Shown here: positions 3-38,800 of the stretch, one piece after another
Layout of the letters: each line of letters opens with the position of its first letter
Numbering within the stretch: the stretch's first letter is position 1
Source of the DNA: a virus
Lineage: Duplodnaviria > Heunggongvirae > Uroviricota > Caudoviricetes
Direction: 5' to 3' (one strand)
IMG/VR virus record: IMGVR_UViG_2778261630_000003
Length of the DNA: 47,934 nt
Translations under genes and position numbers: made by a program
Notes under the pieces: model-generated
What the model saw: the letters and a program-made list of their open reading frames with translations, nothing else
Database searches by the model: none
What the model was told of the DNA's origin: nothing

Positions 3-335
3 GTGCTGGCGCTGAAAGTGGATCCGGAGTCGCCGGAGTCTTTTATGTTACGCCCTAAACGTCGCCGCTGGGTTAACGAAAAGTACACGCGCTGGGTTAA
101 GACGCAGCCGTGTGCATGTTGTGGAAAGCCTGCTGATGATCCCCACCACCTGATAGGTCACGGTCAGGGTGGAATGGGTACAAAAGCGCATGACCTCTTT
201 GTGTTGCCTTTGTGCAGAAAGCATCACGACGAGCTGCATGCGGATACTGTGGCATTTGAAGATAAATATGGCTCTCAACTGGAGCTGATATTTCGTTTTA
301 TCGATCGTGCGCTGGCAACTGGCGTGCTGGCCTGA
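3..335 (+). CDS. DUF968-like phage protein (HNH-like Cys/His motifs), N-terminus probably outside window
   Basis: ORF open to window start; translation carries [21 protein letters not shown] motifs typical of YdfU/DUF968 proteins that sit just upstream of Q in lambdoid prophages. Confidence 0.55.
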
Positions 336-351
336 TTTTGTGGAGAAAGTT

Positions 352-724
352 GATGCGTGATATTCAAATGGTTCTTGAACGTTGGGGTGCATGGGTGGCA
401 AATAATCACGAGGATGTCACTTGGTCGTCTATTGCTGCAGGATTTAAAGGACTAATCCCTTCAAAAGTAAAATCCCGCCCGCAATGTTGTGACGATGACG
501 CGATGATCATTTGTGGGTGTATGGCTCGCCTGAAAAAGAACAACAGCGATTTGCACGATTTATTAGTGGATTACTATGTAGGAGGTATGACATTTATGGC
601 GCTTGCCCGTAAACATGGGCGTTCTGATTGCTGGGTTGGGCGTTTATTGCAAAAAGCGGAAGGAGTAGTTGATGGTATGTTGATAATGCTAGATATTGAA
701 TTGGAAATGGAACGTAAAATTTAG
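352..724 (+). CDS. late-gene antitermination protein Q (Phage_antitermQ type), copy 1
   Basis: ATG at 352 preceded by GGAGAAAG; translation [30 protein letters not shown] matches Q of 82/21-type lambdoid phages; paralog of 42754-43137. Confidence 0.85.
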
Positions 725-983: not shown

Positions 984-1481
984 ATGATTGAATCAATGCT
1001 TTCAAATGTAATTTTAAGTGGAGCTATGTCCACGTTATTGGCTGCATTTCTAATTTTTGTGTTTAAGGAGTATATAAAAAGACCACCTAATTTTTCAGGG
1101 GTGTTTGAGATCGAGTGTAAAACGCTAAAATCATCATATAATTCATATGTAAACCTAACTACATTCTATACATTAGTGTTGATTTGTGATAATAACACTA
1201 TAGAAGGACATATTGAAAAAATAAAAGATATCGAAAATGATGGGTATGAAAGAAAATATATTGGCGTGCATCGCAATATTGGCGATGTCAATGGTGTAAT
1301 TAAAAGAAATTACTTAAGACCTAACCATGCTTCGTTGAATATAAAAATGCATGGTGATAATAGGGATTATACTATTATGCTATATTTTAAGAAGGTGAAT
1401 ACGAAAAATATGAAAGGAACTTTTTTATCTACTGCTGCAGATTCTTCTGGAGATGTTAAGTGGCAGCGAAAAAATTTTTAA
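984..1481 (+). CDS. hypothetical small membrane protein (single N-terminal TM helix), low-GC cargo gene
   Basis: 165-aa ORF in ~30% GC block; hydrophobic segment SGAMSTLLAAFLIFVF; 3' end overlaps next ORF by 22 nt (operon-like); no recognisable motif. Confidence 0.45.
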   Translation: MIESMLSNVILSGAMSTLLAAFLIFVFKEYIKRPPNFSGVFEIECKTLKSSYNSYVNLTTFYTLVLICDNNTIEGHIEKIKDIENDGYERKYIGVHRNIGDVNGVIKRNYLRPNHASLNIKMHGDNRDYTIMLYFKKVNTKNMKGTFLSTAADSSGDVKWQRKNF

Positions 1482-2104
1482 TTTATTTACTGTCGTTGCC
1501 ATATTTAATAATGGCTTCGATTATCATAAAGCTTAAAGTTAAAAGTATAATTGATGATTATGAGAAATGTACTACTTATATTTACTGTAACTCGAAGAAA
1601 TATAATAACATTTCTCCTGTTATGATTGATATATTAAGGTTGGCAGAGGATCATCGACAATTATTGCATAGAGGGATTGACCCCATTGCAATTATTAGAA
1701 CTTTTTATCTGAGGATATTTAAAAATATACACCAAGGAGCGAGCACTATAGAACAGCAGTTTGTGAGAACTATAACTAAAAGATACGAAAAAACAATACG
1801 TAGAAAGATAAGAGAGCAGATATTGGCTATATTGATTAGAAATGTATCAACTCCAGATGATATATGTAAGTGTTATCTTTCTTGTTGTTACTATGGCTAT
1901 GGAACTTATGGGATAGATAATCTTTTAAAAAAGAAACAAAATATCAGTGATTTTGATATTGTTGCAATGATTAAATATCCATTCAGGGGAGAAGTTGTTT
2001 CAGTTACAGAGGAACGATTTAAACATAGGTCGCTCTATCTTTCCACTTTATATAAATTAAATGCACAAAGGGATATGATTTTTTTGCGAAAATATAGTGG
2101 GTGA
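1460..2104 (+). CDS. membrane-anchored GT51-family protein (monofunctional peptidoglycan glycosyltransferase-like)
   Basis: GTG start 7 nt after GGAG; N-terminal hydrophobic anchor FLIYLLSLPYLIMASIII; ordered motifs EDHRQLLHRGID, QGASTIEQQFVR, RRKIREQ, YLSCCYYGYGTYGID matching GT51 motifs EDxxFxxHxG, GxSTxTQQ, RKxxE, YLN..FG..G; alternative ATG start at 1511 would remove the anchor. Confidence 0.6.
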   Translation: MAAKKFLIYLLSLPYLIMASIIIKLKVKSIIDDYEKCTTYIYCNSKKYNNISPVMIDILRLAEDHRQLLHRGIDPIAIIRTFYLRIFKNIHQGASTIEQQFVRTITKRYEKTIRRKIREQILAILIRNVSTPDDICKCYLSCCYYGYGTYGIDNLLKKKQNISDFDIVAMIKYPFRGEVVSVTEERFKHRSLYLSTLYKLNAQRDMIFLRKYSG

Positions 2105-2302
2105 TTATGTTAAGTGTATTTTATTATGTGTCAAAAAGTTTAGTCATCTCTGCTTAATGTATAATCGTGAATGTTTTTATTCAGATTTTATGCATGTCAA
2201 GTTGATGAGTGCCGTCGACATAAGATATGGGGATAATGAATAGTTTACAATCGTAAATAATAGAATATCCTGTTAAAAGTGGTTACTTCTCCACGCAGCT
2301 TA

Positions 2303-2324
2303 AACCCGCCGTCGAGCGGGTTTT
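2303..2324 (+). terminator. intrinsic-terminator-like hairpin within a conserved ~45-bp element upstream of the holin gene (copy 1)
   Basis: AAACCCGC-CGTCGA-GCGGGTTTT; the same element recurs at 44835-44858 upstream of the second holin. Confidence 0.5.
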
Positions 2325-2475
2325 GTCGTTTCTGGGTCTGGGGATTCCTTGGTCCTAGCCTATCCCGCAGTTATCCATTAACTCGGCTTCTTTGACGTTT
2401 CCGCTTCTGATTTGCGGTACATGATGTTTCCTCAATTTGCACCTGCTGTATCAGCGAGGTGAGAGATAACTACAA

Positions 2476-3821: not shown

Positions 3822-4391
3822 TCAGTTGTCAAATGAATATACGTTAAAGGTATATGTCGACATAATTTCACCAATTACCTCAATACATACACTTTTTTTA
3901 TGAAAATTACTGGGAAATGAACTTAGCTCCTCAAGATATTGCACATAAGTGCTGATATCACTTGCATCACGTTCAAGGAATTTCACTTGACCAAAAGAAG
4001 GAGTTTTAATTCTGGTTCTTTGCTGGATTATATGGATAAAGTGTGTAGTTGGTGAAACTATTACTCTTGAAATATCGGAAGTGATATCTTCTTGAACCTG
4101 CCGATAAAGCAAATCTTTTGGGTAATGATGTTTTATCTCGATGGTTGCAACATTGCCATTATGTTCAGGCGTCAATATCGACTGGTTATAAAGTGATATG
4201 TCAACAGCGCCGATACCGAGTTTTGGATGCTCACTTAAAGCAGTTAGTGTGCTGATTTGATTGATTATAACAACTAACTCATCACGTATTTGTGTTTCAT
4301 GTTTGCGATTGTAGAAGTAGCAATTCAGTTCATTTAACTTTTTATGCATCTTATCGTGACTAATTGCTTCGATCAGTAAATCCTGAATCAT
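3822..4391 (-). CDS. hypothetical protein, low-GC cargo gene; possible PD-(D/E)xK-type nuclease signature
   Basis: ORF open to 4451; preferred start MIQDLL at 4391 (GAGAAAAG upstream); segment GIGAVDIS...(about 20 aa)...ATIEIKHH resembles hhhD / ExK strands of restriction-endonuclease-like fold; ~30% GC. Confidence 0.45.
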   Translation of the reverse strand: MIQDLLIEAISHDKMHKKLNELNCYFYNRKHETQIRDELVVIINQISTLTALSEHPKLGIGAVDISLYNQSILTPEHNGNVATIEIKHHYPKDLLYRQVQEDITSDISRVIVSPTTHFIHIIQQRTRIKTPSFGQVKFLERDASDISTYVQYLEELSSFPSNFHKKSVCIEVIGEIMSTYTFNVYSFDN

Positions 4392-4567: not shown

Positions 4568-5023
4568 ATGGACGCTACTTATATTGCTTATGAAACTCTT
4601 GTAGCTAACAGAGATGCTGCATTTTGGGCTAAATTTTCTGCTCTTGTGAGTCTGGCGAGTATTGGAGTTACTTTGTTCGCAGGGATTGTGGGTTTTCTCG
4701 CATTAGGGCAATGGAAAAAACAGTATAATGAAGACAAAAAATTGAAATTGATGGATGCTATCATTGAGTATAATAATACTTTGATTTCTATGCCAAAGAA
4801 TTTAGAAAATGATGAAGGTTATGTTAATAGAAAGTTGATTATCAGAGCCTTTAATGAATTGCAATCTAGGTGCAATATTTATCTATCATCTAACTCAAAT
4901 GATGATATTTCTAAAACCATGGATAATTTACGAGAACTTCAAATGGCTTTCTTGGCCGGAAAGGGTTTTAAATCAGAATTGGCCTTGCTTGCAGGGAAAA
5001 TGTTATATATAGATTTAAAATGA
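4568..5023 (+). CDS. hypothetical single-TM membrane protein, low-GC cargo gene
   Basis: TGcTATAAT extended -10 at 4533-4541, GAGG RBS, ATG 4568; TM helix LVSLASIGVTLFAGIVGFLAL; divergent from 3822-4391. Confidence 0.45.
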   Translation: MDATYIAYETLVANRDAAFWAKFSALVSLASIGVTLFAGIVGFLALGQWKKQYNEDKKLKLMDAIIEYNNTLISMPKNLENDEGYVNRKLIIRAFNELQSRCNIYLSSNSNDDISKTMDNLRELQMAFLAGKGFKSELALLAGKMLYIDLK

Positions 5024-22552: not shown

Positions 22553-23296
22553 ATGCATCGCATAGACACGAAAACCGCGCAGAAGGATAAGTTCGGCGCG
22601 GGTAAGAACGGTTTTACCCGTGGTAACCCCCAGACCGGCACGCCTGCCACCGATCTGGATGATGACTACTTTGACATGTTGCAGGAAGAGCTTTGTGGCG
22701 TGGTGGAGGCATCCGGTGCCAGCCTGGAGAAGGGGCGAAACGACCAGTTGCTTACCGCGCTTCGTGCGCTGCTGTTAAGCCGCAAGAATCCGTTTGGTGA
22801 TATCAAATCGGATGGCACGGTGAAAACGGCTCTCGAAAACCTTGGTTTAGGAGAAGGCTCAGCATTGCCTGTTGGCGTACCTGTTCCGTGGCCCTCAGCC
22901 ACTCCGCCAACAGGCTGGCTGAAATGCAATGGTGCGGCTTTTTCTGCTGAAGAATACCCGGAACTGGCAAAGGCTTACCCGACAAATAAATTGCCAGATT
23001 TACGTGGTGAGTTTATTCGTGGCTGGGATGATGGGCGCGGCGTTGATTCAAGGCGTGCGGTGCTGTCAACACAAGAGCCAACTGTAGGTACTTTTTATGT
23101 GGGGCTAGCTATCATCTCGGGAACTTTGAGCGGCTCAGGTGCTAAATTTACCGATTCAGTAGGGATTGGATCAACCAGTAGTAACATTACCGTTAGCAAC
23201 GGTAATGACCAGTCCGTGTCGGGTACAGTGGCCGTTAACCCCGTCGATACCCGTCCACGCAACATTGCATTTAACTATATCGTGAGAGCAGCATAA
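22553..23296 (+). CDS. tail fibre protein; C-terminal part lies inside the invertible segment
   Basis: crossover site at 22830-22855 lies inside the ORF (...ENLGLGEG...); variable C-terminus downstream. Confidence 0.7.
22830..22855. repeat. invertase crossover site, left (gix/hix-like, 2-bp core TT)
   Basis: CTCTCGAAAACC-TT-GGTTTAGGAGAA; about 18 of 26 positions match the reverse complement of the site at 24757-24782. Confidence 0.7.
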
Positions 23297-23898
23297 TGGA
23301 TAAAGCAATATTAAATAGTGGACTTGTTGCTACAAAGGCAGGGGATATTACCGTTTATAACTATGATGGTGAAACTCGGGAATATATTTCCACTTCAAGT
23401 GAATATCTTGCCGTTGGTGTTGGTATCCCGGCATATTCCTGTCTGAATGCACCAGGTATACATAAGGCGGGTTATGCTATCTGTCGTTCTGTGAATTTAA
23501 ATTCATGGGAATATGTGCCAGACCATCGCGGTGAAATCGTCTATAACACCGAAACGGGAGAATCAAAACAAATCACAGCACCGGGTGATTACCCCGAAAA
23601 TACAACCACTATTGCCCCATTAACGCCATACGATAAATGGGATGGTGAGAAATGGGTGACCGATACTGAGGCACAGCATAGCGCCGCAGTAGACGCGGCA
23701 GAAGCACAGCGTCAGTCACTGATTGATGCTGCAATGGCTTCCATCGGTCTGATTCAGCTGAAATTACAGGCCGGACGGAAGCTGATGCAGGCAGAAACAA
23801 CCCGGCTTAACGCTGTGCTGGATTACATTGACGCGGTGACGGCAACAAATACCAGCACAGCGCCGGATGTCATCTGGCCTGAACTGCCGGAGGCGTAG
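23296..23898 (+). CDS. tail fibre assembly protein (orientation currently expressed)
   Basis: 200 aa, conserved C-terminal Tfa region ...TSTAPDVIWPELPEA. Confidence 0.7.
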   Translation: MDKAILNSGLVATKAGDITVYNYDGETREYISTSSEYLAVGVGIPAYSCLNAPGIHKAGYAICRSVNLNSWEYVPDHRGEIVYNTETGESKQITAPGDYPENTTTIAPLTPYDKWDGEKWVTDTEAQHSAAVDAAEAQRQSLIDAAMASIGLIQLKLQAGRKLMQAETTRLNAVLDYIDAVTATNTSTAPDVIWPELPEA

Positions 23899-24313
23899 GC
23901 CATTCAATATCTGGAGCACTGGAGGTATCAACCAGTTCCAGTGCGTCCAGATAATCCAGCCACAAATTATATTGCGCCAGTTCCTCACTTTTCAGACGAC
24001 CAATCGCCGCTTTGCCAGGCCACTGATGGGTATTGATGTAGGTATTGACTTCAGAAACCAAAGATATTTTTTTCATTTCAGCCGTCAACACCTCATCCTC
24101 TTTTGAAGGGGGTGGGGAATTAATCCATACTGGCCGTCCTGAACTGTCAGCGCCAATTTCTTTCCCTTCTGGATGCAGCCCAAGAAATTGCTCATATGTT
24201 TCTCTGGTAATTTCAATAACATCATCAGGAAGCGTTCCCGCATCCTCATATTCTGGAAACAATTCTTGCAGATAAAAACTTTTACTTCCGGGTGAAAAGA
24301 ATACTGAGTTCAT
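23870..24313 (-). CDS. tail fibre assembly protein (alternative, inverted)
   Basis: 147 aa, C-terminus ...TSSAPDIEWPTPPAVQAR parallels the + strand Tfa; convergent with it. Confidence 0.65.
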   Translation of the reverse strand: MNSVFFSPGSKSFYLQELFPEYEDAGTLPDDVIEITRETYEQFLGLHPEGKEIGADSSGRPVWINSPPPSKEDEVLTAEMKKISLVSEVNTYINTHQWPGKAAIGRLKSEELAQYNLWLDYLDALELVDTSSAPDIEWPTPPAVQAR

Positions 24314-24782: not shown

Positions 24783-24836
24783 TGCATAAATAACGAGCAA
24801 ATGGCATCATTCCTGCTTTTGTCAGGGAGATCTACC

Positions 24837-25391
24837 ATGCTTATTGGCTATGTACGTGTGTCAACAAATGACCAGAACACAGATCTACAACGTAATGCGC
24901 TGAACTGTGCAGGATGCGAGCTGATTTTTGAAGACAAGATAAGCGGTACAAAGTCCGAAAGGCCGGGACTGAAAAAACTGCTCAGGACATTATCGGCAGG
25001 TGATACGCTGGTGGTCTGGAAACTGGACCGACTGGGGCGCAGTATGCGGCATCTTGTCGTGCTGGTGGAGGAGTTGCGCGAACGAGGCATCAACTTTCGT
25101 AGTCTGACGGATTCAATTGATACCAGTACCCCAATGGGGCGCTTTTTCTTTCATGTGATGGGTGCCCTGGCTGAAATGGAGCGTGAACTGATTGTTGAAA
25201 GAACAAAAGCTGGACTGGAAGCTGCTCGCGCACAGGGACGAATTGGTGGACGTCGTCCCAAACTTACACCAGAACAATGGGAACAGGCCGGACGATTAAT
25301 TGCATCAGGAGTTCCTCGCCAGAAGGTGGCGATTATCTATGATGTTGGTGTGTCAACTTTGTATAAGAGGTTTCCTGCAGGGGATAAATAA
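24837..25391 (+). CDS. pin: serine DNA invertase Pin
   Basis: MLIGYVRVSTNDQNTDLQRNAL...GRRPKL; matches remembered E. coli e14 Pin over essentially its full length. Confidence 0.95.
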   Translation: MLIGYVRVSTNDQNTDLQRNALNCAGCELIFEDKISGTKSERPGLKKLLRTLSAGDTLVVWKLDRLGRSMRHLVVLVEELRERGINFRSLTDSIDTSTPMGRFFFHVMGALAEMERELIVERTKAGLEAARAQGRIGGRRPKLTPEQWEQAGRLIASGVPRQKVAIIYDVGVSTLYKRFPAGDK

Positions 25392-25497: not shown

Positions 25498-26331
25498 ATG
25501 CATGTTTTTGATAACAATGGAATTGAACTGAAAGCTGAGTGTTCGATAGGTGAAGAGGATGGTGTTTATGGTCTAATCCTTGAGTCGTGGGGGCCGGGTG
25601 ACAGAAACAAAGATTACAATATCGCTCTTGATTATATCATTGAACGGTTGGTTGATTCTGGTGTATCCCAAGTCGTAGTATATCTGGCGTCATCATCAGT
25701 CAGAAAACATATGCATTCTTTGGATGAAAGAAAAATCCATCCTGGTGAATATTTTACTTTGATTGGTAATAGCCCCCGCGATATACGCTTGAAGATGTGT
25801 GGTTATCAGGCTTATTTTAGTCGTACGGGGAGAAAGGAAATTCCTTCCGGCAATAGAACGAAACGAATATTGATAAATGTTCCAGGTATTTATAGTGACA
25901 GTTTTTGGGCGTCTATAATACGTGGAGAACTATCAGAGCTTTCACAGCCTACAGATGATGAATCGCTTCTGAATATGAGGGTTAGTAAATTAATTAAGAA
26001 AACGTTGAGTCAACCCGAGGGCTCCAGGAAACCAGTTGAGGTAGAAAGACTACAAAAAGTTTATGTCCGAGACCCGATGGTAAAAGCTTGGATTTTACAG
26101 CAAAGTAAAGGTATATGTGAAAACTGTGGTAAAAATGCTCCGTTTTATTTAAATGATGGAAACCCATATTTGGAAGTGCATCATGTAATTCCCCTGTCTT
26201 CAGGTGGTGCTGATACAACAGATAACTGTGTTGCCCTTTGTCCGAATTGCCATAGAGAATTGCACTATAGTAAAAATGCAAAAGAACTAATCGAGATGCT
26301 TTACGTTAATATAAACCGATTACAGAAATAA
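25498..26331 (+). CDS. mcrA: 5-methylcytosine-specific restriction enzyme McrA (HNH)
   Basis: 277 aa MHVFDNNGIELKAE...HHVIPLSSGGADTTDNCVALCPNCH; matches remembered e14 McrA. Confidence 0.95.
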   Translation: MHVFDNNGIELKAECSIGEEDGVYGLILESWGPGDRNKDYNIALDYIIERLVDSGVSQVVVYLASSSVRKHMHSLDERKIHPGEYFTLIGNSPRDIRLKMCGYQAYFSRTGRKEIPSGNRTKRILINVPGIYSDSFWASIIRGELSELSQPTDDESLLNMRVSKLIKKTLSQPEGSRKPVEVERLQKVYVRDPMVKAWILQQSKGICENCGKNAPFYLNDGNPYLEVHHVIPLSSGGADTTDNCVALCPNCHRELHYSKNAKELIEMLYVNINRLQK

Positions 26332-26564
26332 AATTATTTATTAAAGTCACATTTAAGACGTAATACCCTACAGGGTAAAAATTTTTTCTGATCTTAACTT
26401 CTGCAAATGTTAACTGCTATTTTTATGCTAAAAATGGTTATCAAAACTCAAAAACACATGTTTATAATCAATGAGTTATAGAAATGCTAAGGGCTAATGA
26501 GTTATATGCAAATTAGTAAAATTATGTTGCTATGTCAAATAGTTACGATTTAGTCATCTAACTA

Positions 26565-26729
26565 ATGCTGCGCCATATGGGCTGGACTGAAGCCGCAGAC
26601 CTGATTGTTAAAGGTATGGAAGGCGCAATCAACGCCAAGACCGTAACCTATGACTTCGAACGTCTGATGGAAGGCGCTAAACTGCTGAAATGCAGCGAGT
26701 TTGGTGACGCGATCATCAAGAACATGTAA
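26565..26729 (+). pseudogene. icd: isocitrate dehydrogenase 3' fragment (icd C-terminal 54 codons), attachment-site-associated
   Basis: [54 protein letters not shown]; in-frame stop immediately upstream, so only the 3' end is present. Confidence 0.9.
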
Positions 26730-26742
26730 TCTCTACATGTGT

Positions 26743-26770
26743 TAAATATTATAACGGGCGTATAACACGC
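26743..26770 (+). terminator. intrinsic terminator after icd fragment
   Basis: AACGGGCGT-ataac-ACGCCCGTT followed by GTTTT. Confidence 0.7.
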
Positions 26771-26786
26771 CCGTTGTTTTATGATG

Positions 26787-26822
26787 ATGTAAAATCTTCC
26801 CCAAAACTTTCCCCAAAACCCT
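26787..26822 (+). repeat. three tandem TTCCCCAAAAC repeats in the att/int-proximal region
   Basis: units at 26787-26797, 26799-26809 and 26812-26822, between the icd terminator and the int 3' end. Confidence 0.8.
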
Positions 26823-26842
26823 TCCCCAAAACTGGCTATTTT

Positions 26843-27985
26843 CTATGCTGTTTTGATATCTACGATAATCCAGTCTTTACCACGATCATCATTGTATCGG
26901 TCGGTCATTTTTCTGGATTTATGGCCTAACAACTTTTGCGTATCCAGACCCTGTTCCCGATATAACCGTTCTGACAGAGATCGCTGCTCATGAAATGTGG
27001 GCGCAGTTCCTTGCTCCCATTTTATGCCACATTTTTCCCTGGCCTTTTTAAAAGCCGTTGTCAGAGTATTCGCAGAAACCTGGTCTCCTCTGTTTGCTTG
27101 AGAGGTTGTGTGACGGTAATGGACCAGATATTTACTAACAACAGCATCCCTGCACTGAGATATAACTTCACGAAGGGTAATATTCAGAGCATCGCATTTC
27201 AGGTTAAGCGGAATAGCAAGTTTTGAACCGGTTTTTTCCTGAGTAATGTGCAACATGTCGTCCTAGATATCAGAGAATTTCAAATTGCAGATATCGCCTA
27301 AACGTTGTCCAGTGACAAGAGCAAGTAGCATCCCGCATTTTAAATAGGGCTGCCGTCTGCTTACGCTGTCAAATATTGCCTGCCATTCGGGCAGTGATAA
27401 TCTTTGGCGGTTTACTCGATTTCGCGGTTGTTTTGTTGCCTGCGCTGGGTTAAATCCTGGCGGAACATGTCCTGCGTGTTGTGCTTCTTTGAAGACGTCG
27501 ATTAACACCATTCTCACGACTTGCGCCATCCTGTTATGACCTTCAGCCTTTACAGCATCAATTATTTCGGCAATATCAAGTGCGGTAATATCCTTGAGGT
27601 GTTGCATTCCACAATGCTCACGGAAAAGACGAATGGGTTTGCCTTTTTGCCGATAGGAGTTGGGTCTTAGTTCATTATGTTGCAGCCTGTCCTCCTGGAT
27701 AGAAATATATTTATCAAGCCATTCTGTCACCGTAATGTCTGAGCGCCTGCCTTTCATTCTTTCCAGACGCTCATTGACGCTTAATATTTGTCGGGTACGT
27801 TGTTCAGCAATAATGGTATTTGCTTCAGTAGCAACTTGTTTTGCTTCATTCTCATCAGTTCCTAAGCTATGAAAACGACCGGATAGTGGATGTTTGTATT
27901 GCCAATATACCTTTCCGGTTCGCTTATCTAATTTGCAATATAAATTGGGTATAGAGATTTTGTGAGATCGGGGTCTAGCAGCCAT
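26843..27985 (-). pseudogene. int: tyrosine integrase (lambda Int family) interrupted by a single in-frame amber codon
   Basis: ORFs 27263-27985 and 26843-27256 are in the same frame separated only by TAG (plus-strand CTA at 27263-27265); C-terminal part has HEQRSL...LLGHKS...RYNDDRG catalytic motifs. Confidence 0.85.
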
Positions 27986-28211
27986 CAGCGATTATCCGTT
28001 GGAGTTTTGGGTTTGCGTTTATTGGGAGTTGCGGTTCTGCAAGCGTTCCTACAAAACGGGAATTTCGGTCAATCATCCAGTAGCGACCAACTTTTATAGC
28101 GGGTGGGGCCATCATTTTCCCTTGCGCGTATTTTTTCAGAACTCGCTCACTTGGTGCTAAGTCCCCAAATTCTTCTTTAGCCCAGTCCTGTAAAGTGATT
28201 AGTCGAGACAT
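27975..28211 (-). CDS. xis: excisionase
   Basis: small basic protein with LITLQDW and PPAIKVGRYW resembling lambda Xis; overlaps int start. Confidence 0.7.
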   Translation of the reverse strand: MSRLITLQDWAKEEFGDLAPSERVLKKYAQGKMMAPPAIKVGRYWMIDRNSRFVGTLAEPQLPINANPKLQRIIADGC

Positions 28212-33256: not shown

Positions 33257-33480
33257 ATTTCCATTTCACGCTCTTTAACAATAAGCAATCAACTTAACAG
33301 TCAATTCAAACTAAAGGAGTCAATTATGCAACCACTTACATACCAACAGACTAGCGGATTTAGCCCGACTGCGGTGATAAATCGTTCTCAAACAAAACAG
33401 GCGCCAGGCCACGAAAAATCCGTGATGCCGTTCGCGCCTGGTCGGCTGCAGATAATCAGGATGTTGTTGCCGCACTCATT

Positions 33481-33864
33481 GTGAATGAGTATCGGGAGCA
33501 GGGCGGCGGCACCATCGATTTCCCTGATGATGTCAGCCGTGCACGCCAGAAGCTGTTCCGCTTCCTCGATAACAAATTCGATTCTGAAAAATACCGAAAT
33601 AACGTGCGTGAACTGACCCCGGCAATTCTGGCGGTACTACCGCTGGAATATCGCGGCCACCTGGTTGAGCAGGATAGCTTCATGGCTCGGCTGGCTGAAA
33701 TGGAAAAGGAACTCAGTGAGGCAAAGCAGGCGGTCATTCTCAACGCACCACGCCACCAGAAACTGAAGGAGATGAGTGAAGGCATTGTGTCGATGTTTCG
33801 TGTGGACCCGGATCTGGCTGGTCCATTAATGGCGATGGTTACCACCATGCTGGGGGCAATATGA
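33481..33864 (+). CDS. YdaT-like protein (CII-position regulator family)
   Basis: NEYREQGGGTIDFP and TPAILAVLPLEYR resemble Rac YdaT; annotated from GTG 33481 but similarity seems to extend upstream in the same frame without a start; an RBS-led ATG at 33326 is in another frame. Confidence 0.5.
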   Translation: MNEYREQGGGTIDFPDDVSRARQKLFRFLDNKFDSEKYRNNVRELTPAILAVLPLEYRGHLVEQDSFMARLAEMEKELSEAKQAVILNAPRHQKLKEMSEGIVSMFRVDPDLAGPLMAMVTTMLGAI

Positions 33865-35827: not shown

Positions 35828-38800
35828 ATGACCACTGTGAATAAAAAGTTAAAAAAAACTGCATCTGGCGCGATTACATGGTCGGTAATTGTTACCCAGA
35901 TATTATCTCCAGTTTCTCTTTCTTTGATCCCAGCAAACAGTTTTGCATCTTCTGGTAATAAAGATGTTACGCAAACTTATGCCAGCGATGAGCATGCAAA
36001 TAAAGTGGCCTCATTTGCAGCAAGTGCAGGTCAGAGCCTGGCGAATAATAATGCAAGTAGTTTTGCTGTAAATACTTTATCAACTCAGGCGACAAAAGAG
36101 GTCGTCGACTGGTTGCAACAATATGGCAATGCGCGCATCAAGCTTAATGTCGATGATTCTTTTTCCTTGAAGGATTCATCATTCGACTTTTTATATCCAT
36201 GGCTGGATACTCAGGATTATGTGCTATTCAGTCAGACATCACTACATCGTACTGATGACCGAAATCAGACCAATATTGGTTTGGGGATTCGTCATTTCAC
36301 TCCTGATAACGCAATGTTGGGTGCGAATGTTTTCTATGATTACGATTTAAGTCGCAGTCACTCTCGTGCAGGTTTTGGGGTTGAGTACTGGAGAGATTAT
36401 TTCAGGCTTGGTGTAAATACCTATTTTGGTTTGTCTGACTGGAAGAACAGTCGGGATATTGATGATTATCTGGAAAGACCCGCAAATGGCTGGGATTTTT
36501 CTGCTGAAGGATGGCTACCTGCTTATCCGCAATTAGGGGCATCCATTCAGTTTGAAAAATATTATGGTAAAAATGTCGGGTTATTTGGAAGCGATAATCT
36601 GCAGGAAAACCCTTACGCAGTTACTGGGGGAATTTCTTATACACCAGTTCCTCTGATTAAGTTTTCTGCACAGCATAAGCAAGGACAGAGCAACGTTCAC
36701 GATACAACCTTCGGTGTTGAGTTTAATTATCGCCCGGGCGTTTCCCTGGCTGAACAGCTTAGCAGCGATAATGTTGCAGTTATGCGAGAAGTCCAGAATC
36801 GGCGTTATGATTTTGTTGAACGAAATAACAACATTGTTCTGGAGTACAAGAAGAAGCATGCACTGAAAATCAGTTTGCCAGAGTCTGTTCAGGGGGAGGG
36901 GGAATCAATCATCCCTGTAACACTGACAATCAACAATGCTAGTGGTGGTATCAAGTCTGTACAGTGGAATGATAGTGCATTCACTGCGGCTGGCGGCAAG
37001 ATCAGTGGAAATGGCACATCATGGCAGATCACTTTACCGGCTTATAAAAGCGAAGGTGTAAATTCGTGGAATGTTGGAGCCACAGTCCAGGATAACAGAG
37101 GCAATGTTTCCAACTATGCCGTTATGAATATCAGCGTTAATAATAGTGGTGTCTCGACAGCGGATTCATCTTTTACGCTGGATGGGGATTCGTCTCCGAC
37201 GATCTCTGCTGATGGTCAATCCACTTATCCAATAGTATTAAGCCTGAAAGACAGTAACGGTAAGGCATTAACCGGACTGGCTGATGACATTGAAATGTCT
37301 GTGGAATTTACTGCGGATAGCAATAGTGCTCGACAGCGTGAAACGGTAACTGCTCCGTCATTAGGCGCGGTAGAGGAAATCTCTGCTGGTGTATATCGCT
37401 CTGTTCTGGCTGCTGGTTCGCAGGCTGGGACGGTACGTGTAACTGCAAAAGTTCAGGGAAAAACCTTTACTCTGAATATTAAGCAGGCAGCCGTTATTGA
37501 TAGTGATGTATCGACAGCGGATTCATCTTTTACGCTGGATGGGGATTCGTCTCCGACGATCTCTGCTGATGGTCAATCCACTTATCCAATAGTATTAAGC
37601 CTGAAAGACAGTAACGGTAAGGCATTAACCGGACTGGCTGATGACATTGAAATGTCTGTGGAATTTACTGCGGATAGCAATAGTGCTCGACAGCGTGAAA
37701 CGGTAACTGCTCCGTCATTAGGCGCGGTAGAGGAAATCTCTGCTGGTGTATATCGCTCTGTTCTGGCTGCTGGTTCGCAGGCTGGGACGGTACGTGTAAC
37801 TGCAAAAGTTCAGGGAAAAACATTTACTCTCAGTATTAAGCAAACAGCAGCAACAGAACCTGATTCTGAGGTCAGTGCTGTTTTAACCGCTGCACCAGCA
37901 GAACAGGTAGTTGGTTACAATATCAATCTACAACTGGCAGTGAAGGATTCACAAGGAAATGCAATCACTGGTGATAACACTCTGAGCTTTTATGCTCTTA
38001 ACCAGGCAGAAGGAGTCGAGTTTGGGACTGTAACGGAAAAAGACGGTGTCTATAGCGCGACAGTAACTTCAAAACGAGCTGGTAAGATTACTATCGGTGT
38101 TAAATCTGATAGTCATGATTTCTCAGGTGTTAAGAAAGAAATCACCTTTATTGAGGACCGGCAGCAGGTTACATTCTCTCAGTTTGAAGCCAGCCAAAAT
38201 AATGCATTGGCTGATGGAAAACAGAGAAATATGGTAACTGTAAGCCTTGCGGACCGTTTCGGCAATGTTGTTCCTGGTTATGCTGTCACATTGTCTTTAC
38301 CAGCAGGGATAACTCAAGTTGGTGGTGAACATGCTGTTTCAACTGACGAAAATGGTAATGCTATTTTTGCGTTAATAAGCTCCACTCCGGGGTCTTACGT
38401 GATTACAGCTCATGCTGGTTCTCAGATGTCTACTGAGTTAACAGTGACCTTTGCATCAAATATGACCGGAGCTTCACTGTCACTGACGCCTGAAAGCAGT
38501 AGTTTAATTTCCAATATTCCTGCTAATGGTAAGGATGCAGCGGTATTAGATGTGCAGCTGACAAATACGAATGCGTCGGTCAATGGGCAAAAGATTCAGC
38601 TCATCACCTCATCTGAAGGATTATCTGTACCAACAAATATCGTGACTGATTCAACAGGGCATGTTTCTGTTCCGCTTACAACGGTGAAAGCTGGTGAGTA
38701 CACGGTGACTGCACGGGTGACTGACGGTTCCCATAGCGTGGAATCTGGCAGCGTTAAGTTAACTTTTGTGCCCGATGTTGCTTCTGCAGAACTTACTATG

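Follow-up and report, generated by a model that had tools for sequence, protein, structure and literature searches.

An Orphan icd 3' Fragment between mcrA and int as the Probable Seam of Two icd-Targeting Prophages

The stretch of DNA analysed here, of 47,934 nucleotides and called the window throughout, carries a short copy of the icd 3' end between mcrA and a lambda-family integrase gene. It is very probable that this copy lies at the seam of two icd-targeting phages, where a dead 21-type remnant had already rebuilt icd before an e14-family phage entered it. The order of the two events, with the 21-type remnant first and the e14-family phage later, is also likely, and it rests on parsimony across only four genomes. 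The site as such belongs to long-established biology: e14 and 21 use the same icd site and tandem occupancy occurs. The current understanding is unchanged.

The Orphan icd Fragment and Its Terminator

The fragment is an open reading frame of 54 codons whose product matches the NADP-isocitrate dehydrogenase model NCBIfam NF005425 at positions 363-416 of 416 (E=5e-25). The coordinates of this and the other features are given in Table 1. By nucleotide comparison, the 218-bp block 26565-26782 is matched at every position (0 differences) both by the intact icd of strain A3, at its 3' end, and by the orphan fragment of strain H22. It departs from the icdC of K-12 at 16 positions and from the K-12 icd 3' end that is carried by e14 at 33. 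A preliminary description of this DNA had proposed an icd 3' copy between mcrA and int, and the comparison confirms it; a mismatch between the fragment and the icd 3' end at the nucleotide level, which would have spoken against that proposal, was looked for against A3 and none was found over the 218 bp.

The same description had placed the fragment at 26565-26770 with a terminator of its own. The terminator is there, as a stem-loop at 26751-26777 followed by a T-tail, with a folding energy of -20.1 kcal/mol (z=-4.4); 0 of 200 shuffled sequences folded equally well. The right end has to be moved, since the homology block reaches 26782, the position at which the similarity to K-12 icdC stops. 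No evident promoter or ribosome-binding site was found for the 54-codon ORF, and RefSeq labels the equivalent fragment a partial pseudogene in H22 and 82.0311. The ORF is best treated as a non-expressed icd pseudogene and att relic. The icd terminator in the window is now positioned 3' of mcrA.

Two properties of the encoded peptide were considered as markers and dropped. The exact 54-aa peptide does not mark the tandem, since it is also a common chromosomal icd tail adjoining iraM, and for the same reason the C-terminal ending IIKNM is not a sign of phage-21 origin.

Table 1. Features of the window that bear on the icd junction, with the evidence for each.
Feature	Position	Strand	Evidence or remark
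Q antiterminator gene, e14-like phage	311..616	+	direct repeat of the 21-type Q at 42711-43017
Late-operon leader, e14-like phage	2241..2461	+	direct repeat of 44775-44992
mcrA, final gene of the e14-family prophage	25498..26331	+	full-length PADLOC mREase_IV match, E=6.5e-203; HNH domain
e14 right arm (P arm of the e14-type att site)	26332..26564	+	233 bp, 99.1% identical to the K-12 mcrA-icdC spacer
mcrA terminator-like hairpin	26364-26377		within the e14 right arm
e14-type arm site GTTATCAAAAC	26437..26447	+	exact match, ~127 nt 5' of the core; putative Int site
Putative crossover (core) region, ATGCTGCGCCA	26565..26575	+	first block conserved across all att variants
Orphan icd 3' fragment, pseudogene	26565..26729	+	54 codons and TAA stop, ATG start
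icd intrinsic terminator and end of the 218-bp att identity block	26751..26782	+	terminator scan, RNA fold, homology end
Three direct TTCCCCAAAAC repeats, putative 21-type P' arm sites	26797..26832	+	at +232, +244 and +257 from the core
21-type integrase pseudogene, lambda family	26843..27985	-	codon 241 is TAG at 27263-27265; TGG in intact alleles
Excisionase xis	27975..28211	-	overlaps int; identical to phage 21 Xis (exact sequence in the UniRef100 cluster represented by VXIS_BPP21); Pfam Exc
In-frame fusion of lysozyme N-terminus and tail-tip protein J	45213..47934	+	open for 907 codons to the contig end

Structure of the Hybrid att Junction

Left of 26565 the window tracks the e14 arm; beyond that point, 4421 nt starting at 26565 match the attL of A3 without a difference. 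Judged by these alignments, the region 26332-26843 is a hybrid of an e14-type attR and a 21-type attL. This agrees with the earlier proposal that two elements at icd share one att junction, the e14 arm running to 26564 and the 21-type attL starting at 26565. The att cores were also aligned, as had been suggested, and the block starting ATGCTGCGCCA is common to all variants; the first common block in these alignments is (A)TGCTGCGCCA, which icd, e14 and the 21-type attP have in common.

On the e14 side, K-12 e14 has the GTTATCAAAAC motif at an equal distance from the core, and so does H22, whose right arm is otherwise divergent and unrelated but keeps GGTTATCAAAAC at about -126. On the 21-type side, TTCCCCAAAAC has only three matches in the window, which the A3 attL and the attP of the free phage 4A7 share. 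It was possible to read the whole order of such a site in the 4A7 attP: a P arm with TTTCCCCAAAAT, the core CTGCTGCGCCATATGGG, the 218-bp icd tail with its terminator, three TTCCCCAAAAC repeats and then int. By comparison, three TTATCAAAA motifs are present in the e14 left arm of both K-12 and H22, at +233/234, +244/245 and +257/258. The arm-type sites of the two systems thus occupy the same positions and differ in sequence, being TTATCAAAA in e14 and TTCCCCAAAA in the 21-type element. The K-12 IntE and the 21-type Int are 60% identical.

From these sequences, the e14 and 21 systems appear to have a common target and different specificity, with an equal att geometry and different arm sequences, and each Int would presumably bind its own class of arm repeats. 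The preliminary description had attributed the same integration specificity to both elements; that stands for the target and fails for the integrases and the arm sites. The title of Wang et al. 1997 states the same point for 21 and e14, a common target and not a common specificity.

The lambda attP has the arm sites P1/P2 and P'1-P'3, and the lambda Int has an N-terminal arm-binding domain. The site described here resembles it in the Arm-DNA-bind_1 domain of Int, in the three tandem P' sites beside int and in a P site located about 130 nt 5' of the core. It differs in that the core and the P' sites are split by the icd replacement segment of about 218 bp, which leaves the P' sites at +232 to +257.

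The e14-Family Prophage on the Left

The segment 24756-26782 of the window is 97.5% identical over 2027 nt to the pinE-mcrA-icdC region of K-12. The pin gene of the window gives Resolvase and HTH_7 matches, and pin, mcrA and the right arm are collinear with K-12 e14. The mcrA-type right arm was found in 337 of 5426 complete genomes, mostly K-12 laboratory derivatives. The exact McrA protein was tried as a marker of the tandem and dropped, its sequence being very widespread.

The late genes of this e14-like element are apparently uninterrupted. They comprise Q, holin, lysozyme, HNH, terminase, portal, protease and capsid genes, and further on those for the sheath, tube, tape measure, baseplate and fibres, with an invertible segment adjoining pin. 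The element looks complete, as a full-size relative of the K-12 e14. Its intE and xisE genes would be at the icd-proximal end, outside the window; in H22, where this end is present, the intE is 97% identical to the K-12 IntE. A PADLOC scan gave no match for four unannotated ORFs of the e14-like late region or for an alpha/beta-hydrolase gene, and Rfam and tRNA scans were empty over the whole window, with no sRNA or tRNA target known there. In the related prophage NC-SV, the svsR sRNA sits in cI, outside 26332-27985 (PMC12803456).

The closest described counterpart of this side of the junction is the e14 attR of K-12 (pinE-mcrA-icdC), from the work of Hill, Gray & Brody 1989 as it is cited in PMC6379469 and PMC13626634. 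Both sites have the same pin-mcrA order, a 233-bp arm (99% identical), a 165-bp icd' ORF starting at ATGCTGCGCCA and the same hairpin. In K-12, however, iraM comes next after the fragment, which is the chromosome's own original tail; in the window, the next features are three 21-type repeats and a 21-type int. The elements themselves are also different, considering that K-12 e14 is a 15-kb remnant and that the one in the window has lysis, terminase, capsid, sheath, baseplate and fibre genes.

The 21-Type Remnant on the Right

The right-hand element is, as far as its Xis, holin, Int and attP layout indicate, a phage-21-type lambdoid prophage. The holin encoded at 44998-45213 belongs to the family "Bacteriophage P21 holin S". 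Without its stop codon, the Int would be 100% identical to the Int of the free lambdoid phages 4A7, Lambda_4C10, 1W, 3W, Perceval and PhiR47_2; the 21-type identity of Int is drawn from such free phages with the same attP structure.

In the preliminary description this gene was given as the integrase of a lambda/21-like element. The assignment to the 21 type holds, but the gene is not intact, an in-frame TAG having been overlooked. On translation, this stop (W241*) is the only amino-acid difference from the intact Int of strain 82.0311. The truncated product of 240 aa has the Arm-DNA-bind_1 and central domains and lacks the catalytic domain PF00589, so that a functional integrase was not found in the 21-type prophage of the window. 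In A3 and H22 the int gene is annotated with an "internal stop".

The structural genes of this element are also affected. Directly after the holin, the fusion ORF has a Pfam Phage_lysozyme match at residues 34-83 and then GpJ domains; A3 and H22 have this lysozyme::J junction in their annotation as well. The fusion is the scar of a deletion that took the remaining lysis genes together with those for packaging, head and tail shaft. None of the packaging, head or tail-shaft genes was found for the 21-type element in the window, and with lysozyme::gpJ following the holin a complete virion and lysis gene set is absent from it. The 21-type element is a grounded deletion remnant. In the closed relatives A3 and H22 the remnant measures about 29 kb and ends with sitABCD.

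Distribution in E. coli Genomes

The block formed by the icd tail and int is present in about 1627 of 5426 complete E. coli genomes, and in nearly all of these it is the expressed end of an intact icd. The exact 65-mer with the W241* mutation (27229-27293) is much rarer, being found in 3 of the 1659 complete genomes with this int, namely A3, A26 and H22. In A3 and A26 the remnant is by itself, flanked by an intact icd on one side and on the other by a displaced icd tail adjoining iraM, with the same stop and the same lysozyme::J junction. The alignment of 26565-47934 to A3 has no gaps and 12 mismatches in 21,370 positions. A comparison with strains that hold one element only had been recommended in the preliminary description; A3 and A26 hold the same remnant alone, and the e14 of K-12 matches the left side at the 97.5% given above.

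H22 is the closest closed relative with both elements. Its layout is icd, an e14-like element with intE/xisE, an icd' fragment, the 21-type remnant with sitABCD, a second icd' fragment and iraM, about 70 kb in all, in line with the composite island of more than 48 kb that had been predicted. Compared with the window, H22 has an identity of 99.906% in the remnant but of only about 97% in the e14-like part, where the last gene is a DUF262 gene and not mcrA.

The exact combination of the e14 mcrA-type arm, icd' and the 21-type arm was found in 4 of 5426 complete genomes, which are two clonal pairs (82.0311/82.0312 and PEC131/165). Tandems with a variant arm were found in H22 and DAM among the complete genomes, and a further tandem in CP057347 from a wider collection. 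In all of these (H22, 82.0311/82.0312, PEC131/PEC165, DAM and CP057347) the order is an e14-family element, an icd' fragment and a 21-type int, and the right-end cargo of the e14-like element varies between a DUF262/GmrSD-like gene, a GIY-YIG gene with a partial mcrA, and an acyltransferase gene. Unlike the window, 82.0311 and CP057347 have an intact 21-type Int. The natural tandems of MS1657 and VTB96929v have the reverse order, so there is no fixed order. The tandem is uncommon but not surprising.

The reverse-order tandems, which also include the engineered K-12 strains CP174267/8, likewise have one hybrid junction with an orphan icd tail. In them the 21-type element is icd-proximal and e14 follows, and the junction consists of a 21 P arm, the core, an e14-type icd tail and the e14 P' sites.

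The icd site is also known from lone lysogens. The 21-type attL of A3, A26 and 536, and of NC-SV in NC101 (PMC12803456), is the same as the window sequence that starts at 26565 and takes in int, xis and the early region. The difference is in what precedes it: in those strains the block is joined to the 5' part of icd and is expressed, and in the window it is joined to the e14 arm and orphaned. Lambdoid "PAI-icd" Sit islands of ExPEC have been described at icd (PMC7545054), and the NC-SV prophage occupies the same site (PMC12803456). In the ExPEC PAI-icd the sitABCD genes are at the distal end, as in the remnants of A3 and H22; the corresponding region of the present element would be beyond the end of the window. 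A full-text literature search for e14, phage 21, icd and integrase together gave no match.

Order of Integration

The history that we favour would have the following steps. The attP of each icd-targeting phage would carry a replacement copy of the icd tail of about 218 bp with its terminator, so that integration would keep icd functional and move the older tail to the distal end of the inserted prophage. The lineage would first have held a 21-type lambdoid prophage, with its icd tail, terminator and three P' sites directly after icd. This prophage would then have decayed in place, through the W241* change in Int and the lysozyme::J deletion, which would have taken all the virion genes. Later, an e14-family phage would have used the rebuilt icd as its attB and given it a new tail, located outside the window, and the 21-derived tail would have been pushed to a place 3' of mcrA, the last gene of the newcomer.

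The structure of the junction alone cannot give the order, because both orders yield the same junction, and for this reason the comparison between lineages was used. The remnant is near-identical in strains where it lies beside differing e14-like phages with variable cargo, which argues that the remnant was the resident and the e14-family phage came later. Besides, an element without a functional Int and without virion genes could not have integrated by itself. The position of the elements is consistent with this order: in engineered K-12, where e14 is the known resident, the 21-att insert is on the icd-proximal side of e14, which fits a newcomer that takes the icd-proximal position.

The opposite chronology was weighed against the same data. 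According to it, an e14-like prophage was the resident, a functional 21-type phage entered the core of the e14 attR (icdC) and decayed later, and A3 and A26 lost their e14-like prophage by precise excision. The final junction would be exactly the one observed, given that a 21-borne icd tail always ends adjoining int. Natural tandems are known in both orders, and e14 does excise precisely, with repeated loss in evolution experiments (PMC13626634). Nevertheless, this chronology needs a vacated site in A3 and A26, and H22 and the window hold clearly different e14-like phages (about 97% identical, with other cargo), the remnant being meanwhile 99.9% identical throughout. In the K-12 that has e14 and a 21-att insert the newcomer did not go to the e14 attR. 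Furthermore, to the left of the core at the e14 attR there is a phage arm and not icd, so that the left core-type site may be missing. Taking these points into account, we regard the opposite chronology as unlikely.

The entry of the e14-family phage beside a resident remnant, which we prefer, could be extended to a more general model, in which the icd site behaves as a stack: each newcomer would take the icd-proximal position with a new tail, the orphan tails would lie in chronological order, and a dead resident could interfere through its truncated Int. If this were true, the 240-aa Int could bind to the core and to the three P' sites that adjoin the attR of the newcomer, and modulate or block the excision of the e14-like element. 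We consider this extension quite improbable.

An error of assembly would change the picture in another manner. The window is the whole 47,934-bp contig of a draft assembly (NLTD01000026.1, GCA_002232835.1), and the icd copies are identical over about 60-68 nt right after the core, so a chimera could be imagined through the repeated icd tail, in which the mcrA arm really abuts the icd fragment beside iraM. Both elements are icd-flanked and icd is a single locus, and consequently they would be in tandem anyway, with any error confined to their order. Closed genomes, among them H22 of the same W241* lineage, show this order and junction too, and the contig is unbroken for more than 21 kb on either side of the join. 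An artefact of this kind is hardly credible.

Excision and Recombination between the Elements

The preliminary description had noted homologous Q and leader sequences in the two elements, and these were recovered. The Q genes are 86.3% identical over 307 nt, with a longest exact run of 38 nt, and both proteins match PF06530. The late leaders are 72.5% identical over 222 nt, with a longest exact run of 29 nt. The repeats are in direct orientation and spaced by about 42.4 kb.

It had been proposed from these features that recombination between the prophages or their co-excision is plausible. As to recombination, the Q and leader repeats could support a rare homologous deletion, dependent on RecA, but an inefficient one at such divergence, with an identity of 86% in Q. 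Co-excision of the pair by an Int is unlikely, because the outer arms are of mismatched types and the 21-type Int is dead; the absence of virion genes from the remnant also counts against the proposal. Each of the two systems, 21 and e14, reportedly excises the prophage of the other very poorly (Wang et al. 1997 are said to have found this).

The idea that both elements form a single mobile unit, either because one integrase excises them together through their common cores or because recombination at the Q and leader repeats regularly yields a hybrid phage, is scarcely tenable: the core is indeed common to both elements and the exact runs in the direct repeats could allow a rare deletion of about 42.4 kb that leaves a hybrid prophage, but the outer sites are an e14-type attL (TTATCAAAA P') and a 21-type attR (TTCCCCAAAA P) with arms mismatched for either Int, the 21-type Int is without its catalytic domain, the remnant is without packaging, head and tail-shaft genes, and the identity of the Q genes is low for efficient homologous exchange.

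With two separately inserted prophages, as we propose, probably only the e14-like element could still excise, and its excision by its own Int and Xis would restore icd by rejoining it to the 21-type tail. This expectation comes from the repeated precise loss of e14 in K-12, in which icd recombines with icdC (PMC13626634).

Consequences for Annotation

For annotation, the 54-codon ORF is to be labelled an icd pseudogene and att relic, and int a nonsense pseudogene. The two prophages are to be annotated separately, as an apparently complete e14-family phage and a grounded 21-type remnant, and not as one island. The case shows that the att sites of e14 and 21 are alike in geometry and unlike in their arm-site sequences, and it is a natural example of the reuse of a site held by another phage, by phages that bring a replacement gene tail with them. 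Public genomes already contain such arrangements in annotated form.

Deletion and cargo in the 21-type remnant

The holin gene of the 21-type remnant is followed by an open reading frame in which the N-terminus of a phage lysozyme (about 66 aa) is joined in frame to the tail-tip protein J. This fusion is a deletion scar, and the genes lost from the 21-type prophage were those of the lysis-distal region, packaging, head, and tail shaft. Opposite the J coding sequence, the minus strand holds an ORF of 625 aa (46005-47882), which looks like an antisense artefact of J because its translation, inspected by eye, is Arg/His-rich. A gene coding for an inverse autotransporter was located between replication gene P and the nin region, and it is cargo of the remnant. 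It contains an internal tandem duplication, whose two copies (37135-37434 and 37492-37791) are 99% identical at a spacing of 357 nt; the gene in H22, a closed genome with the tandem prophages, is 15 codons shorter than the copy in the window. In the 99.9%-identical remnants of H22 and of A3, a strain carrying the remnant alone at an intact icd, the annotation gives a frameshift in the YdaT-domain gene downstream of cro. This frameshift, as annotated in those two remnants, would add to the signs of decay in the 21-type element.

Coordinates of features in the window
Feature	Position	Strand	Remarks
Tail-fibre and fibre-assembly segment	22837-24810		Adjoins pin (24801-25391)
Function-unassigned ORFs, e14-like late region	984-2104	+	
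	3822-4391	-	
	4568-5023	+	
ydaT-like gene	33456-33864 region		Counterpart of the A3/H22 gene annotated as frameshifted
Inverse autotransporter (intimin/invasin-like), 1302 aa	35828-39736	+	IAT_beta domain and several Big_1 domains
Lysozyme::J fusion ORF	45213-47934	+	Downstream of holin (44998-45213)

Invertible segment and late region of the e14-like element

When the fibre segment next to the Pin invertase was compared with e14 of K-12, part of its match was on the opposite strand (22837-23050 and 23252-23974). From this comparison, the invertible segment appears to differ from that of K-12 in its orientation or arrangement. The late region of the e14-like phage has several inserted ORFs, which lie either between Q and the holin or in the stretch from the lysis genes to HNH/terminase. 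One of them has a transglycosylase domain (PF00912). None of these inserted ORFs was matched by the defence models of PADLOC; they may be moron cargo.

Window ends, icd tails, and distribution of McrA

In both length and gene content, the window is identical to contig NLTD01000026.1 of a draft assembly (GCA_002232835.1), taken as a whole. Its left end interrupts a DUF968 gene and its right end interrupts gpJ, as is typical of the contig breaks that repeats induce between prophages.

The expressed icd tail of H22 was compared with 26565-26782 of the window. For about 68 nt after the core it matches the resident (21-type/A3) allele; its distal part and its terminator are e14-type. In this comparison the tail is a mosaic of both types, which points to gene conversion between the icd tails or else to an e14-like phage whose tail allele is different.

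McrA proteins identical to that of the window over all 277 aa are extremely widespread. In many contigs that carry the identical protein, mcrA has icd upstream of it at a distance of only about 3.9 kb, and this distance implies that they hold a tiny remnant formed by icd, pin, mcrA, and the displaced 3′ fragment icd′. Downstream of the tiny remnant there are a DUF3626 gene and genes for pertussis-toxin-like S1 and S2/S3 subunits.
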